Part shown: one piece after another, positions 41,092-48,545 of the stretch | Position numbering within the stretch: position 1 is the first letter of the stretch | Layout of the letters: each line of letters opens with the position of its first letter | DNA from: Chitinophagales bacterium | GTDB taxonomy: Bacteria; Bacteroidota; Bacteroidia; Chitinophagales; Chitinophagaceae | Assembly: GCA_038239385.1 (NCBI GenBank) | Contig: JBBSEV010000016.1 | Coordinates: 14,534-78,533, forward strand | Direction: 5' to 3' | DNA: 64,000 bases | Position numbers and translations under genes: made by a program | Notes under the pieces: model-generated | Databases searched by the model: none | What the model was told of the DNA's origin: nothing | Seen by the model: the letters and a program-made list of their open reading frames with translations, nothing else

Positions 41092-41817
41092 ATGGAATAT
41101 CTAACTAAATCATTTACAAAATACCTGGTAAAGTCAACTGCAATTTGCGCTTTGTTTATCAGCTCTTTTGGGTTTTACAAAGCTCGTAAGGTTATCCAGA
41201 TTGACGTAAAAACACTTTTAAATGCCCGGTGTGTAACTACATTCACCGGAGGGAAATTAGTAACATGGACAAAAGGAATAGATAAAGACAACGGATATTT
41301 AACCATGGCTGCCGCAGACTTTAATAATGATAAAGATCCTCATGCCTTGCCTGATAATTCTTTATTCCCCGCCAATCAATGGCACCCGGAAATATTATTG
41401 CATTATTCAAATGAAGACGGAACGCAAAATCAAACGAGGTGTATTGAGGATAGCGGGGAATTTATCATCACAGTTCCCAGGCACAAATATTCTGATCTCT
41501 ATCTCAGCCTCACAAGTTCCTATGGTACATCGTCGCTTTACTTTGAGCTCACTTATACAGACGGTGTTGAATTGCGAAATTTTATTGTACCTGATTGGTT
41601 TAAAGATATTCCTGAAAAAGATCCTGATTTTAGTTATGTAGTCCACGACATGGGCAAATGGGGCAACAGTAATAATTTAAAAGAAAAAGATCATCATAAT
41701 ATTGATGCTCTTAATATTCATCCAAATCCTAAACGCATTCTCACTGCAGTAAAATTAAAAAAATCACCTGGCGGATATTTGGTTTTTTGGGCGGCAACAG
41801 GAGTTTTAAAAAGTTAA
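41092..41817 (+). CDS. Hypothetical secreted or membrane-anchored protein
   Basis: N-terminal hydrophobic segment (STAICALFISSFGF). I recognise no family. Confidence 0.5.
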   Translation: MEYLTKSFTKYLVKSTAICALFISSFGFYKARKVIQIDVKTLLNARCVTTFTGGKLVTWTKGIDKDNGYLTMAAADFNNDKDPHALPDNSLFPANQWHPEILLHYSNEDGTQNQTRCIEDSGEFIITVPRHKYSDLYLSLTSSYGTSSLYFELTYTDGVELRNFIVPDWFKDIPEKDPDFSYVVHDMGKWGNSNNLKEKDHHNIDALNIHPNPKRILTAVKLKKSPGGYLVFWAATGVLKS

Positions 41818-42647: not shown

Positions 42648-43697
42648 ATGACCAAACTTTCTCCAGTAAATAAAAAAGAAATAGGGCGCGAATATATTTC
42701 CGGAGATGAGGACGCTATCATTAGCGAAATGATTGAAGAAATGAAAGTACAGCTTACGCAATTATATCAAAATACAAAGACACTCAGGCAGGTTCATACA
42801 AAAATGCACGGTTGTGTAAAAGCAGTATTTACTGTAGTTCCCGGCCTTTCCAACGAATTAAAGTTGGGAATTTTTAAAGAACCTATTACATATCCAGCAT
42901 GGATAAGATTTTCTAATGCAAGTACTATCGTGCAGCATGACAGGAAAAAAGATATAAGAGGCATCGCCATTAAACTAATGAATGTTCCCGGAGAAAAGCT
43001 TTTAAAAAATCATCATTCCGAGCAGACACAGGATTTTCTATTAATGAGCCATGAAACTTTCTTTTCAAAAAATATAGCGCAATTCAGGTATTTACTAAAA
43101 GCCGCTACGACAAAAAACAAATTGAAGCTTGTATCTTATTTTCTTAATCCTTTACATTGGGTCCTGTTAAAGAGATTGCTCAAATCAAATATTCGCTGTA
43201 CCAATCCATTTGAAATACCCTATTGGAGTACGCAGCCTTACCGGTATGGGAATGATTCCACCGCTGTAAAGTACTTTTTAAAACCATCAATAGGTAATGA
43301 ACTTATTATTGAAGATACAAGTGATCATAATTACCTGCGTATAAACATGGCAAAAACATTAGAGGTGAATGAAATTCGATTTGATTTCTTTATACAATTT
43401 CAAACAGATGCGGACAAAATGCCGATAGAAAACCCGACAATCGCATGGACATCGCCATTTATTAAAGTTGCTGAGATAAAAATTTTGAAACAGGTTTTTA
43501 ATACACCTGCACAAATGGAATTCGCAGATAACTTGTCCTTTGATATTTGGCACTCTCTCCCTGAACACAGGCCACTCGGTAATTTTAACCGTGTAAGAAA
43601 GCAGGCATATGAAGAGCTCTCAAAGTTTCGCCACGAACGTAACCATACTCCTGTTTTTGAACCAATAGCGGGGCCTGATTTTTTTGAAACTATTTAA
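42648..43697 (+). CDS. Catalase-related small haem protein (mini-catalase)
   Basis: 349 aa. Distal-His motif RQVHTKMHG (compare catalase RVVHAKGAG), IRFSNAS...DIRGIAIKL (compare RFS...D.RGFA.KF), and a proximal-Tyr motif RVRKQAYEELSKFR. Confidence 0.75.
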   Translation: MTKLSPVNKKEIGREYISGDEDAIISEMIEEMKVQLTQLYQNTKTLRQVHTKMHGCVKAVFTVVPGLSNELKLGIFKEPITYPAWIRFSNASTIVQHDRKKDIRGIAIKLMNVPGEKLLKNHHSEQTQDFLLMSHETFFSKNIAQFRYLLKAATTKNKLKLVSYFLNPLHWVLLKRLLKSNIRCTNPFEIPYWSTQPYRYGNDSTAVKYFLKPSIGNELIIEDTSDHNYLRINMAKTLEVNEIRFDFFIQFQTDADKMPIENPTIAWTSPFIKVAEIKILKQVFNTPAQMEFADNLSFDIWHSLPEHRPLGNFNRVRKQAYEELSKFRHERNHTPVFEPIAGPDFFETI

Positions 43698-43885: not shown

Positions 43886-45295
43886 TTAAATCGTACTCAA
43901 ATAATCGACGACAGTCACAGAAGGAAAAAAGAAATACGCACCTCCCTTTACAGTTACAAAACTTTTCAATCCCGTAATATATTTATTAGCTATTTCCTGT
44001 GGAATGGTGAACTTTTGTTCAATCCCGTTATCAAGGTTTTCCCTTACTCCAATAAAAGGATCTGGGTCAGCATACAATTGTTTAAACTTTGGATAATTGG
44101 CCCAGGTATATTGAATAAATTCAAATTGACGTGAAATATCCGCGTTAAAACAACCAAATAATATCCCTACTTCATTATCCGGTGTATGATGTGTTGCGGA
44201 GCCGGTAAACATTTCTCCATATGAACGTACTCTACGCATTATGCGATGTTTTTTTGTAAGCCGTAATGATTCCAAAGGGCCTGTTTCTTCAAAATTATCC
44301 CTGGGATTTGTACGACGGATGTGTGAACCAAACGGACATTTCAACCCAAGTTTGTCCGTATCCATATAATTAAAATCATTGTCATCACTTATTATGCCCG
44401 GATCTTTATCAGGAAATTTTACCAGTGGTGCGCCACCTGGCCATCGCCCCATCATCTTTGCTGCCAGCTTTGTACTTGCCTCGGCATTCAGCGTACCATC
44501 TTCATTTTTACTTTTTTCATTTAGAAAATTCCAGAAGCCATTTACATCTTCTTTGAGTTGGCGAAGTACAAAATATGTCCCGTTGCGACCCAGATCTTTA
44601 TAACCTGTGCCGCCAGCATCGTCGAAAAGCATTTGTACATTTCCCTGGCTCTCTTTAATAAGGGGGGTATCGGGATATACATTATATTCATTTTTATATC
44701 CCATTATAAATTCGCCGGGCTCTATGTTATCATTTCTAATTCCATTTACCCCGGTACCGATAATAGCTGGTTGGGCAATACTCTCTCTAAAACCAAAATG
44801 TTCCCGGCCTTCCGGGAAGGTTTCCCCATCCAAAATGAAAATCTCCTTCAATCCATGCTGCTCAAATTCTTCACGCATGTGTTTGAAATGTGTATTTATT
44901 TTTTCTTCATCCCGGTCAAAAATCATCAATATTATATGGATGACTTCATTATTAGGGCCACCCCAATTCCAGTTTTCCGGGCTGTTGCTGTTATAGTCTC
45001 CTAAAAGTCTTTGCCGGTGAGGAGTTACCATCCCTTCCCGGAATTCTCTTATAAAGGAGCGAATATTATTTTGTGCTAACTCCAATGCTTCGAGCCCTGC
45101 ACTTGTAAAACCAATATTCAAATAGCTATCCTTTATTTCGTTAGTAACAGTTGTAATTTTTTTTGCCGTCGCTTTAATAAAAATCTTGGCTTTATTTACA
45201 TCTGCAATTTGTAAAAGAAAATATTTTGAATAAGACATCTCTTTATAATCTCTTACCAGGAAGCCCTGGATTTCCGAAAGTTCCAGTTGTTGCAT
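43886..45295 (-). CDS. DyP-type peroxidase (long form, about 469 aa)
   Basis: N-terminal LSEIQGFLV, then EHFGFRESIAQP, the proximal-His motif GSHIRRTNPRD, IMRRVRSYG and FGCFNADISRQFEFIQ. Confidence 0.85.
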   Translation of the reverse strand: MQQLELSEIQGFLVRDYKEMSYSKYFLLQIADVNKAKIFIKATAKKITTVTNEIKDSYLNIGFTSAGLEALELAQNNIRSFIREFREGMVTPHRQRLLGDYNSNSPENWNWGGPNNEVIHIILMIFDRDEEKINTHFKHMREEFEQHGLKEIFILDGETFPEGREHFGFRESIAQPAIIGTGVNGIRNDNIEPGEFIMGYKNEYNVYPDTPLIKESQGNVQMLFDDAGGTGYKDLGRNGTYFVLRQLKEDVNGFWNFLNEKSKNEDGTLNAEASTKLAAKMMGRWPGGAPLVKFPDKDPGIISDDNDFNYMDTDKLGLKCPFGSHIRRTNPRDNFEETGPLESLRLTKKHRIMRRVRSYGEMFTGSATHHTPDNEVGILFGCFNADISRQFEFIQYTWANYPKFKQLYADPDPFIGVRENLDNGIEQKFTIPQEIANKYITGLKSFVTVKGGAYFFFPSVTVVDYLSTI

Positions 45296-45306
45296 TAGTT
45301 ATTATT

Positions 45307-46569
45307 TTAAAATCTTTTAAGAAACAATTGCGCCTGTTTTTCAGTGAGATTTTCACGCAATTCGTTTCTTATTAAAGTATTATTCACAATATTTTTTATG
45401 GAAAGATGATGGTAGGCACTGTACCATACCTGGGTAAGTATTTGTGTGCCACGGCTCCAGGCCAAAAAATGTTCTTCGTCATAGGCGCCATGTGTAAACA
45501 AAAATTTTGTTCTTGGAAAATTCATTGTATTACTGAAAATGCCGGTTAGCCCCCATCCTGATTTATCTATAAAATCACAAAGATATTGATTCCAGCTTCC
45601 GTCAAAATTGCTAAAGAACATCATATGTTTATGGTTATCTATTAAAACCCACCGGGCAAAATGTATAGTGGGAATGCCCATCAACTTTCCCTTAACAAAG
45701 AAATTTTTTATTAACGTCCTTGCAAATAACATCAGTGCCTGAACTGTTATCAGCCTGACCATGCCGGGCTTCATTACTAATACCTGGGTAAATTGATTTT
45801 GATTGAACAAATCTTCATCACATTCGAGCCTGCGTACCAAATCGTCATTGAGTTCGCTGCGCTTAACCTCGCAGTTAGTGTCCCTTCGCTCATAAAAAAA
45901 ATGCAGTATTAAAATCCAGATAATTATTACCGGCAAGAGAATCAAAATAATTAAAGACATAATGATCATACCGGGCCAGTTTACGGAAGCTATTGCATCT
46001 CGTTTTTTTGACCATTCAAATTCAGGGTTTGTGTCTACCTTTTGCTGAATTAACTTTTGTATTTCAAGGGCCGATCTGCCCTCCCAATTATTTTCGTTTA
46101 TAATGTCCCAGATATAATCTTTTAACCTGTCCTCCTGCTTTATTTGTTGTAAGCTTCTGCCTGGCGCACCAACATAAAAAGCGGATGTATTTACTTTCCA
46201 TTTTGCGAGGTAATTTTTCCTGGTTTCCGTATTTCTTACACCAGGCTCCGGATAACCTTCGCAACATTCATACAATTCATCAAAATATTCAGGGAAAACG
46301 CTTACCAGGCCAATTAAATGCACTTCTTCACTCCCATCGAAGTTCGATGAGAATACTAATCTTTCGGGTATTGGAAAAGCAGTTTTATCCCTAAAAGAAT
46401 CCTCCCGTAACACAAACCATCGTGCATAATGAAGAGTACCAAGCTGATTGAATCTTTCATTGAGCCCGGTATTAAGCCCTACTTTAAATTTCTCAAGTAT
46501 TTCATTAAGTTTCTCAAAGCAATCTTTTCTTACAGGTGTAAGTAATGTTATTGGGTTTTGGTAGATCAT
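45307..46569 (-). CDS. Uncharacterised, internally duplicated protein with a central TM helix, co-operonic with DyP
   Basis: 420 aa. The two halves share GTLHYARWFVL...LVFSSNFDGS and PTIHFARWVLI...MMFFSNFDGS. The central hydrophobic helix is MIIMSLIILILLPVIIIWILILHFF. The stop lies 11 nt before the DyP start. Confidence 0.75.
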   Translation of the reverse strand: MIYQNPITLLTPVRKDCFEKLNEILEKFKVGLNTGLNERFNQLGTLHYARWFVLREDSFRDKTAFPIPERLVFSSNFDGSEEVHLIGLVSVFPEYFDELYECCEGYPEPGVRNTETRKNYLAKWKVNTSAFYVGAPGRSLQQIKQEDRLKDYIWDIINENNWEGRSALEIQKLIQQKVDTNPEFEWSKKRDAIASVNWPGMIIMSLIILILLPVIIIWILILHFFYERRDTNCEVKRSELNDDLVRRLECDEDLFNQNQFTQVLVMKPGMVRLITVQALMLFARTLIKNFFVKGKLMGIPTIHFARWVLIDNHKHMMFFSNFDGSWNQYLCDFIDKSGWGLTGIFSNTMNFPRTKFLFTHGAYDEEHFLAWSRGTQILTQVWYSAYHHLSIKNIVNNTLIRNELRENLTEKQAQLFLKRF

Positions 46570-46649: not shown

Positions 46650-46865
46650 AATTATTAGTTCATTATTCTCACTATTATCTGTAAAATTAAAGACGGTACT
46701 TCATGTTCTGCCGGATGCAGGTTAACAGATGTAACCCTTTTGAAGTAATTCTTCCGTAGCTTCTGATTAATAAAACCTTCATCGGCAAAAGCCCATCCTT
46801 TAAGTTTTGAAAATAATTTTATCATAGTAGATAAAAAAGTTTTGTAGTTACTCTGGTGCCGGATC
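46650..46865 (-). mobile_element. IS982-like transposase fragment (frameshifted remnant); boundaries approximate
   Basis: The minus-strand frames read ...LFSKLKGWAFADEGFINQKLRK and, after a frameshift, KGLHLLTCIRQNMKYRL*. These match the IS982-type GDKGYIS...GI.LIT.IRKNMK region. Confidence 0.5.
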
Positions 46866-47629
46866 TCCAGCCTAATTGAATTTGTTGATCACCGATAATG
46901 GCGGAATCTTTAGACACTTGATATTGTTGTATAACCGTATAAGTAAAGAGCTTATTAAGACGGGTGACCCAGGTTATACCTTCACTACTAAATCGATTTA
47001 AAGTTGCAAAATCACGATATCCCCGGTCAAAAACAATTATTGAACCCTTTGGAAGATTAACCTGTTTTAAAAATTGTGAATCGTTGGCTGCCGCTTCCGT
47101 AATGCGTACCATGGAAGGAACATCCTGATCACTTCTTATAAGTGAGTGCACTTTAATACCGCCCTTTCTCTTTCCACTTACAGGAATTTTACGTGAAGTC
47201 CGCAGCACTTCCTGAAAAAGAGAAATAACTGTGCTATCGATAATGTATAATCTGGAAGCGTTACTTTTTTTTCGGCTGTCCGATAAAAAAGAAGCATATA
47301 GCTTAAAAAGAGAACTATAAATCTCGCCGAATACTTCTTCGTTTCTTCGTGTATTCGCATCTGATATAGTGCTATGTCTTGGGTGATAACGAATGCCAAG
47401 ATGTGATAAACGCTTTTCCGAAGCTATCATGCCGGTTGTAACTTCTCTTAGCGAGTTACAATTATTGAAGAAGGAATATAGTATCGTAACCAAATGCCCA
47501 TAAGTAGTAAAACGTTTGCAATATCTTTCGGCATGATTCTGCATTGTAATATAAAGGATACTATCTTTTGGAATGAATTTCAAAAGCTGAGTAAAGATCG
47601 GCTGTCCGCTAAAAAGTACTTTTGTTCAT
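46822..47629 (-). pseudogene. IS4-family (DUF4372 N-terminus) transposase pseudogene, frameshifted near the start and 3'-truncated
   Basis: The ATG at 47629 reads MNKSTF*. Shifting one frame within a T-run continues GQPIFTQLLKFIPKDS.... DDE residues sit in YIIDSTVISL and VFDRGYRDF, but the catalytic E region is missing. The tail runs into the IS982-like fragment. Confidence 0.7.
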
Positions 47630-47846: not shown

Positions 47847-48545
47847 ATGCAAGAAGAAATAAAAAAACATACTAAAAGAATTTACGAAACAGTTAAAAGC
47901 CTTAATTATACTTTCAGCGAGAAATTGAAAGAAATAGTAATTGAAATTTTCATAATCGTTTTTGCGGTAACTCTTTCAATTTGGTTACACAATTGGAGTG
48001 AACACAGGCATGAACAAAAAGAAGCAAAGAAATTCTTAATTGAATTAAGAGAAGACTTAACACGCGACATTAAGCTGCTAAAAGATAATAAACAAACCTC
48101 GATAAAGCTGGACTCTAATTACAAATATATATTATCATTAAAAAAGGACCAGGTTAGCGATACAATTTTGGGTCCATATACAGATATAATTTCTTTTACT
48201 ACTAACTTCAATAGTGGCAGGTACGAAGGTTTTAAGTCAAGTGGAAAAATTGGGACAATTGAGAATGATAAATTGAAGAATAGTATATTGACATACTATC
48301 AACAGACCATCCCTAATTTGATTATAGAAGCTAACTTTATGAATAATGAACAAATTAAAATTCTAAATACAGGTCAAAATGAACTGGGGAATTTATCATT
48401 AAACACTTTTTTAACTACAAAAAAAATGCACTCAATGTTTTATTTTTTAGAATATAATTTTAGAGCTGCTATATCCAATTATGATAGTACAATAACACGA
48501 GCGAATGAAATCATTGTAGACATTAACAAAGAAGCATCAGAATAA
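47847..48545 (+). CDS. Hypothetical N-terminally anchored protein (resembles the DUF6090 layout)
   Basis: TM helix IVIEIFIIVFAVTLSIWL followed by HNWSEHRHEQKEAKKFL and a helical region. Confidence 0.55.
   Translation: MQEEIKKHTKRIYETVKSLNYTFSEKLKEIVIEIFIIVFAVTLSIWLHNWSEHRHEQKEAKKFLIELREDLTRDIKLLKDNKQTSIKLDSNYKYILSLKKDQVSDTILGPYTDIISFTTNFNSGRYEGFKSSGKIGTIENDKLKNSILTYYQQTIPNLIIEANFMNNEQIKILNTGQNELGNLSLNTFLTTKKMHSMFYFLEYNFRAAISNYDSTITRANEIIVDINKEASE

Follow-up and report, generated by a model that had tools for sequence, protein, structure and literature searches.

An unnamed protein family with a duplicated alpha+beta domain and an internal hydrophobic segment: very probable partner subunits of DrDyP-type peroxidases

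The DNA analysed here is a stretch of 64,000 nt (the window) from contig JBBSEV010000016.1 of a Chitinophagales bacterium. At 45307-46569 on the reverse strand it contains an intact open reading frame with an ATG start, whose 420-aa product we call X as a working name. Between the stop codon of X (TAA, 45309-45307) and the ATG (45295) of a gene encoding a DyP-type haem peroxidase lie 11 nt (AATAATAACTA); a small catalase-related haem protein ('mini-catalase') is encoded next to the DyP gene in the opposite direction. The original prediction for this locus, made from the sequence alone, had given the same 11-nt distance. It had also described two copies of a motif and a single hydrophobic segment in X, with coordinates that are correct to within a few bases: TLHYARWF is at residues 45-52 (nt 46437-46414), PTIHFARWVLI at residues 300-310 (nt 45672-45640) and the hydrophobic segment (MIIMSLIILILLPVIIIWILILHFF) at residues 201-225 (nt 45969-45895). 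The N-terminus is not hydrophobic and there is no signal peptide, as had been stated. A scan for sigma-70 promoters and terminators around the X-DyP operon gave nothing better than shuffled sequence.

X lies outside any named family, as had been suspected. Searches of Pfam and NCBIfam gave no match above noise, and sequence and profile searches of the PDB gave no match. When 47 diverse members of the X family were compared with Pfam, there was no match to ABM (PF03992), SchA_CurD or any other named dimeric alpha+beta-barrel (DABB) family even at E values up to 1. Weak matches to DUF1634, Ac76 and oligogalacturonate-lyase were rejected as noise caused by a short motif or by the hydrophobic helix. 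X and its homologues are named 'hypothetical protein' in all databases, including the best matches, Ginsengibacter-like proteins to which X is 87% identical over its full length. The window belongs to a Ginsengibacter-like bacterium of the Chitinophagaceae. PADLOC gave no match for X, the DyP or the mini-catalase. An exhaustive profile search returned 2,935 X clusters (50% identity) at E<=1e-3 and 1,046 at E<=1e-30, and at least 590 X loci were confirmed in a collection with one genome per species. Among the matches listed are Bacteroidota, Gammaproteobacteria, Planctomycetota, Gemmatimonadota, Chloroflexota, Desulfobacterota and Actinomycetes.

Gene neighbourhoods were surveyed at the 80 best X loci, which are mostly from Bacteroidota. 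A DyP gene lies directly downstream of X on the same strand in 76 of these, and in the other four the contig ends at X; DyP is therefore present in every locus that could be tested (76/76). The gap between the two genes has a median of about 10 nt in related loci. Additionally, X and DyP are fused in eight of the 150 top representative clusters, and the products, each about 900 aa long, begin with X and end with DyP_N/Dyp_perox_C. The C-terminal repeat of X also occurs within proteins that contain both a cytochrome P450 (P450) and a DyP. The giant fusions (L085-L087, Table 1) have no reductase domain, and their annotations give no more than 'cytochrome P450', 'Dyp-type peroxidase domain-containing protein' or 'hypothetical protein'. 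X and DyP had been proposed to be one unit, and both the testable loci and the natural fusions bear this out; homologues widespread without DyP neighbours, which had been named as the finding that would count against it, were not encountered. Because X is always encoded next to one type of DyP, is sometimes fused to it and occurs in many bacterial phyla, it is very probably a missing partner subunit of these peroxidases.

Residue conservation indicates that the DyPs encoded beside X are genuine haem enzymes. The proximal His (His325 in the window DyP) and the distal Arg (Arg354/355) are found in all 70 partner DyPs compared, the window protein included, and the Asp of the GXXDG motif is kept in 65 of the 70. 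The window DyP scores above the cut-off with both Pfam models (DyP_N, 31.7 bits; Dyp_perox_C, 22.9 bits), and its closest solved structure is DrDyP of Deinococcus radiodurans (PDB 8re2/8re3, E=1e-48). The gene at 43886-45295 thus has the features of a DyP peroxidase, with the GXXDG Asp alone as a variant: the motif reads GFRES (FGFRES; E171, nt 44783-44785), with Glu for the catalytic Asp and Ser for the last Gly. This Glu is common to only four related loci (L006 of Ginsengibacter hankyongi, L009 of Hanamia caeni, L011 and L012).

The sequence of DrDyP was rebuilt from the alignment and its genomic context was then looked up. All six DrDyP-type loci inspected encode a soluble, single-domain form of X. 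It is directly upstream of the DyP gene in five and three genes upstream in one (L093, one of three loci from other lineages; in the other two it is directly upstream). Where the gene is full-length (five loci), it matches with E of about 1e-21; in D. radiodurans itself, where a short contig 100% identical to DrDyP bears fragments of both flanking genes, the fragment of X matches with E=4.5e-16. In Deinococcus and Microbacterium the soluble protein has about 240 aa and a single repeat (E=1e-21 with the profile of the N-repeat, 1.6e-19 with that of the C-repeat) and its gene precedes the DrDyP-type gene by 1-3 nt. The DyP gene is then followed by a catalase-related gene, which matches a family profile made from related X loci (E=5e-61). 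In the metagenome loci L092-L094 the single-domain X and DyP are found with OsmC, an AhpD-like CMD protein, DUF4331 and a TPR protein, and there is no mini-catalase; these are alternative partners, related to organic hydroperoxides. The single-domain form is widespread in its own right and comprises 1,941 proteins, all 'hypothetical' and without a Pfam domain. By analogy with other proteins of the fold, these single-repeat forms presumably dimerise.

On its own, DrDyP has six-coordinate low-spin haem and is inactive at physiological (neutral) pH; the recombinant protein takes up haem without a partner, and control of its activity by partner proteins is put forward as a speculation in the same paper (PMC10820274). 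DR_A0146, which adjoins DR_A0145 (DrDyP), is a 'kat-like' protein without catalase activity (PMC6300522). No mention of the gene upstream of DR_A0145 was found in the literature retrieved under the tags DR_A0145 and DR_A0146. Literature searches for a DyP partner protein, P450-DyP fusions, clusters of DyP with catalase-related genes, DyP with fatty-acid hydroperoxides and the D. radiodurans gene upstream of DrDyP gave nothing relevant except the adjacency of DR_A0145 and DR_A0146.

X is a true tandem duplication, as the original prediction had held. With plain BLASTP the match between the two halves is limited to a motif of 45 aa (E=3e-4). Profile-profile alignment by HHalign, using profiles of each half built from 47 diverse family members, gives a probability of 99.8% and E=2e-30 over 148 aligned columns (residues 2-161 against 255-412). 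This shows that a whole domain of about 150 aa was duplicated and not just the motif, and the duplication is confirmed far beyond chance. An AlphaFold2 model made with 28 homologues (predicted local distance difference test score (pLDDT) 85.7; predicted TM-score (pTM) 0.85) has the order beta-alpha-beta-beta-alpha-beta twice, at residues 4-133 and 257-384, with a long helix (198-229) between them. This is the ferredoxin-like topology of the DABB/ABM-like superfamily.

A Foldseek search of the PDB with the model gave significant matches to DABB/ABM-like folds in which two domains are packed as a pseudo-dimer. The best was the Abx(+)O polyketide decarboxylase (9ltx; E=4.7e-5, target-normalised TM-score 0.53, probability 1.0) and the next was the ABM/SchA-like protein WhiE-ORFI (9lmn; E=1.5e-4, probability 1.0); 3f44 and 3mcs, both putative monooxygenases, were matched as well. 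Both 9ltx and 9lmn are tandem ABM proteins of 206 aa. TM-scores against such proteins are 0.41-0.53 when normalised to the target and just 0.31-0.36 when normalised to X. The alignments to 9ltx and 9lmn run over 379-395 columns and span both halves of X, which suggests that the two repeats are packed in the model like an ABM pseudo-dimer. That each half is ferredoxin-like had been anticipated and agrees with both the model and Foldseek. A specific likeness of the halves to DyP or Cld had also been suggested and is not detectable. X as a diverged DyP is rejected at the profile level, since each half compared with the 70 partner DyPs has an HHalign probability of 0.2-0.4%; the best Foldseek match of the model to a DyP has E=0.39 and the Pfam DyP models do not match X.

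Conservation was compared across three classes: the N-repeats of X, the C-repeats and the single-domain proteins. The only residues universal to all three are a His (99%), an Arg (89%), an Asp (97%), a Gly (92%), one Phe and one Pro. In the window protein the His, Arg, Asp and Gly correspond to H47/H303, R50/R306 and D78-G79/D323-G324, and the model together with the conservation places the His of each repeat on strand beta-2. The C-repeat, with the conserved sequence IPTIHFARWV...FFSNFDGSW.QYL.DFIDKSGWGL..., keeps nearly all the residues that are conserved in the soluble single-domain homologues. These include W326, Y329, D332, F333, N347, Q376 and W382, all of which have been lost from the N-repeat. 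The functional surface of the ancestor is therefore retained in the C-repeat. All tandem forms have Cys103.

A hydrophobic insert is present at the same position between the repeats in nearly all of the X family representatives scanned. We sorted 145 representatives by the length of the uncharged run. In 63 there is a single run of 18-32 aa, with a Pro within five residues of the centre in 58 of these 63, and in 43 the run is 33-45 aa; 24 have 46-70 aa (two helices), four have more than 70 aa (four to six helices) and the remaining 11 have fewer than 18 aa. Lys/Arg residues border the inserts at both ends. In X the run has about 26 residues, which is sufficient to cross a bilayer, and Pro213 is invariant among 28 close homologues. 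There are no export signals on DyP, the mini-catalase or the fused P450. The inserts with two or four to six helices, the central Pro, the flanking Lys/Arg, the packed halves, the partners without signals and the soluble single-domain homologues all favour a same-side topology, and we consider it probable that both repeats are cytoplasmic and that the insert anchors them as a hairpin or re-entrant element. Two topologies had been offered in the original prediction; the re-entrant anchor is the one favoured here, and the placing of the two domains on opposite sides of the membrane is not.

Table 1. Coordinates and composition of the features at the window locus and of the giant fusions related to X. 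Secondary structure is from DSSP on the AlphaFold2 model (E, strand; H, helix).
Feature	Position	Strand	Size	Remarks
Protein X	45307-46569	-	420 aa	Tandem alpha+beta-barrel-type domains and central hydrophobic anchor (likely); unnamed family
X N-terminal repeat	46089-46569	-	about residues 1-160	beta-alpha-beta-beta-alpha-beta; keeps His47, Arg50, Asp78-Gly79, otherwise diverged
X repeat 1, secondary structure				E4-13, H18-40, E46-54, E70-78, H81-100, E130-133
Hydrophobic segment	45895-45969	-	residues 201-225	MIIMSLIILILL-P-VIIIWILILHFF; likely re-entrant or hairpin membrane anchor
X C-terminal repeat	45310-45807	-	about residues 255-420	Most conserved part of X in family alignments
X repeat 2, secondary structure				E257-266, H270-289, E302-310, E315-323, H326-345, E381-384
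DyP-type haem peroxidase	43886-45295	-	469 aa	Class V (C/D), DrDyP-like; no signal or Tat peptide
Catalase-related small haem protein ('mini-catalase')	42648-43697	+	349 aa	Convergent with DyP
Rhizobium plasmid fusion	L087, 5155-8085		976 aa	N-repeat / two helices / C-repeat / DyP
Novosphingobium aromaticivorans pNL2 fusion	L086, 3766-8097		1443 aa	P450 / N-repeat / membrane segment / C-repeat / DyP
Sulfitobacter plasmid fusion	L085, 3742-8604		1620 aa	P450 / N-repeat / membrane segment / C-repeat / DyP

The mini-catalase gene is found in 44-47 of the 80 related loci and its family is homologous to the DR_A0146-type genes downstream of DrDyP-type DyPs (E=5e-61). This suggests that it is probably a third member of the X-DyP module. 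The window protein is similar to the catalase core of PDB 3e4w (E=3.2e-5 over residues 79-272), a solved 33-kDa protein of the 'mini-catalase' type. Its Pfam Catalase score, 15.2 bits, is below the 25-bit cut-off, and the haem ligands were judged by eye. The catalase-related third member, the single-domain forms beside DrDyP and the P450 fusions had been overlooked in the original prediction.

Other genes recur in the 80 loci. A patatin-like phospholipase (20 loci) or a GST_C-P450 protein of about 700 aa (16 loci) is encoded directly upstream of X, and an ABA4-like membrane protein follows DyP in 14. A GAF-adenylate/guanylate cyclase, in some cases with kinase and AAA domains, is adjacent in 38, either upstream or downstream, and a cyclase-TPR protein is nearby in 14. 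The two sets of neighbours (OsmC/AhpD-like proteins with the soluble X; patatin, P450 and ABA4-like proteins with the anchored X) support a peroxide or lipid theme, although they are no proof of it. In close relatives of the window locus, a divergent kinase-AAA-GAF-adenylate/guanylate cyclase gene occupies the position where the window has an IS4-type transposase (46822-47583), and the window holds no cyclase gene. This suggests that a likely cyclase regulator may have been lost from the window locus.

A second flavour of the module, seen in Puia (L001, 3599-11199), in L020-L030 and elsewhere, consists of patatin, an unknown protein of 248 aa, the GST_C-P450 protein, X, DyP and the ABA4-like protein. 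One Ginsengibacter metagenome-assembled genome has both flavours, with the mini-catalase at L011 and with the P450 and ABA4-like genes at L020.

Taken together, we favour a reading in which X is a dedicated membrane-tethering partner subunit of DrDyP-type (class V) DyP within a module that processes hydroperoxides, and would give this reading as a whole a probability of about 55%. The two repeats would together form one ABM-like pseudo-dimeric alpha+beta barrel on the cytoplasmic side, held at the inner face of the membrane by the insert as a re-entrant or hairpin anchor. X would bind the signal-less DyP made from the same mRNA directly and so fix it to this same face of the cytoplasmic membrane. 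The His-Arg-Asp pocket would most likely bind a small hydrophobic ligand and either hand it to DyP or modulate the DyP haem site. X, DyP and the mini-catalase would most likely process organic or lipid hydroperoxides derived from the membrane, and in other genomes P450, patatin phospholipase or OsmC/AhpD-like proteins would join the module. The partnership of X and DyP is well supported; the chemistry is proposed more tentatively.

Several points weigh against this reading. The complex of X with DyP, and any ligand, cofactor or catalysis of X, are predictions from genes and fold. In the AlphaFold2 model residues 198-229 form one continuous helix of 32 residues (pLDDT about 84-93 over 191-230), and such a helix, as modelled, would fit a membrane-spanning segment better than a tight hairpin. 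A search of the window for the cyclase gene and for the lipid-related neighbours (patatin, P450 and ABA4-like genes) found none of them. The associated P450s were considered as CYP74-like enzymes that rearrange hydroperoxides, and this was rejected because the PDB entries most similar to them are ordinary bacterial P450s with a Cys ligand (PikC/EryK type). Additionally, the 80 surveyed loci are mostly from Bacteroidota and some of the conservation of neighbours may therefore reflect shared ancestry.

The same continuous helix, and an uncharged run long enough for a bilayer, would suit an X with a true single-pass transmembrane helix, the N-repeat being cytoplasmic and the C-repeat periplasmic, that relays a substrate or a signal. 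We think this very unlikely, because homologues have two, four or six helices in the same insert, 58 of the 63 short inserts have the central Pro and positive charges flank the segment on both sides. Moreover, the model packs both repeats as one ABM-like pseudo-dimer, soluble single-domain forms exist, and in the fusions DyP directly follows the C-repeat, yet the separately encoded DyP has no export signal. A different possibility is that X has catalytic activity of its own, as an ABM-type oxygenase, isomerase or decarboxylase that needs no cofactor and turns a hydrophobic membrane-associated substrate into an organic hydroperoxide or other intermediate. DyP and the mini-catalase would consume this product, and the genes would then encode a metabolic channel and not a regulatory subunit. 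The best structural matches (the Abx(+)O decarboxylase, WhiE-ORFI, 3f44 and 3mcs) point in this direction, the invariant His-Arg-Asp set of each repeat resembles an active site and fusion of P450 to DyP is typical of consecutive enzymes of a pathway. However, X has no match at the sequence level to ABM or to any enzyme family, the query-normalised TM-scores are low (0.31-0.36) and no substrate can be named. Moreover, the N-domain has lost most of the residues conserved in the single-domain form, which leaves X with one full site at most, and we regard this possibility as unlikely.

A role for X in handling haem, either as a chaperone or store that loads DyP and the mini-catalase or as a haem-binding redox relay from the membrane to the peroxidase, seems quite unlikely. 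It would account for the association of X with two or three haem enzymes (DyP, the mini-catalase and P450), for the universal His with its Arg and Asp and for the invariant Cys103 of the tandem forms. Many alpha+beta-barrel proteins bind haem, among them IsdG, Cld/HemQ and DyP, and the IsdG-type haem oxygenases combine an ABM fold with a catalytic triad of Asn, Trp and His. The conserved His of X, however, is on beta-2, away from the ligand positions of IsdG and Cld, and presumably does not correspond to the IsdG His. X also has no similarity to known haem chaperones, and recombinant DrDyP incorporates haem without a partner (PMC10820274). It is highly improbable that X is a degenerate paralogue of DyP (a pseudo-peroxidase) or part of an anti-phage or conflict system with patatin, nucleotide cyclases and a membrane effector. 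X and DyP do both have two ferredoxin-like domains, but the profile probability between the halves of X and the partner DyPs is below 1% and the Foldseek E value for DyP is about 0.4. As for defence, the nearby patatin and adenylate/guanylate-cyclase genes recur and give weak matches to CBASS/Pycsar models, and SIR2-TIR and nSTAND genes are near some loci; against this, PADLOC has no model for X, DyP or the mini-catalase, the cyclase (PycC-like) and patatin (phospholipase) matches are generic and defence genes are found in just six of the 80 loci.

An extension of the hydroperoxide theme, which we find decidedly doubtful, is that X-DyP together with patatin, P450 (sometimes with a GST-like domain), the catalase-related protein and the GAF cyclases is a bacterial lipid oxidation pathway of the oxylipin/eicosanoid type. 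DyP would replace lipoxygenase or cyclooxygenase as the core of the pathway. X would extract or present the lipid at the membrane, the haem enzymes would form and rearrange the hydroperoxide and the adjacent cyclase would sense the product. If true, this would be a prokaryotic analogue of the cascade of PLA2, haem dioxygenase and P450/catalase-related synthase. The analogy is weakened by the resemblance of the associated P450s to ordinary O2-activating, Cys-ligated P450s.

Among known systems, the D. radiodurans DR_A0145 (DrDyP)/DR_A0146 locus is the same module, with an X-repeat gene, DyP and a catalase-related gene. There X is soluble, of about 240 aa and one repeat, without a membrane segment, and the three genes are co-directional, whereas the X of the window has two repeats and an anchor, and its locus has the catalase-related gene in convergent orientation. 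The tandem ABM/DABB proteins 9ltx and 9lmn resemble X in having two ferredoxin-like domains in one chain as a pseudo-dimer. There is no detectable sequence similarity, however, and the repeat of X is about 150 aa with extra helices, in comparison with about 100 aa in the tandem ABM proteins. X differs from them also in its hydrophobic membrane insert between the domains and its own His-Arg-Asp signature, and it is tied to DyP genes and not to polyketide clusters.

The CDE superfamily (DyP/chlorite dismutase/EfeB) shares the two-domain ferredoxin-like architecture, and X is always associated with DyP. At the profile level, though, X is unrelated to the partner DyPs and the Foldseek likeness is weak; X has neither the GXXDG motif nor the C-terminal proximal-His motif of the CDE DyPs, its His being on strand beta-2 of each repeat. 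The EfeUOB iron uptake system and encapsulin-packaged DyP are similar to the X module in that dedicated, co-encoded partners set the location of a DyP. Those partners (EfeO/EfeU and an HK97-fold shell) are unrelated to the alpha+beta-barrel protein X, and their DyPs are of class A (Tat-exported) or of class B with a cargo tag, whereas the window DyP is a cytoplasmic class V enzyme with neither.

For the anchor itself, the nearest likeness is to the PglC-type phosphoglycosyl transferases, monotopic enzymes whose re-entrant helix enters a single leaflet and emerges on the side from which it came. As in X, that helix has about 25-30 hydrophobic residues, a central Pro and flanking positive charges. 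There is no sequence relation between the two, the element of X is internal, between domains, and not N-terminal, and the topology of X is deduced from the observations given above.

Although the fold and the DyPs were already known, the X family, its His-Arg-Asp signature, the internal anchor and the X-DyP(-mini-catalase) module appear to be undescribed in the libraries and literature searched. The physiological roles of bacterial DyPs are largely open, and the enzymes have usually been studied in isolation with artificial dyes. Here a large unnamed family is the constant genomic companion, and occasionally the fusion partner, of one whole clade of DyPs that includes DrDyP, and this pairing makes the role of bacterial DyPs in vivo directly testable. 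It also gives a context for DR_A0146, the 'catalase without catalase activity', and X, with its conserved His-Arg-Asp site and its unusual membrane anchor inside the chain, defines a new sequence family in the alpha+beta-barrel fold.

Finally, some genes near the module are of minor interest. The six loci with defence genes counted above are from Chitinophagaceae; there, SIR2-TIR and nSTAND1 NTPase genes (L003, 17686-21263; L006, 11796-13097, among them) are separated from the module by a few genes and are probably an adjacent defence island outside it. In the window, the IS4-type transposase is on the reverse strand 250 nt upstream of X and is truncated, with DUF4372 and a partial DDE_Tnp_1. 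A DUF6090 protein with an N-terminal membrane helix (47847-48545, forward strand) and a 241-aa open reading frame without a Pfam match (41092-41817, forward strand) are also encoded nearby; neither is recurrent beside X in related loci.

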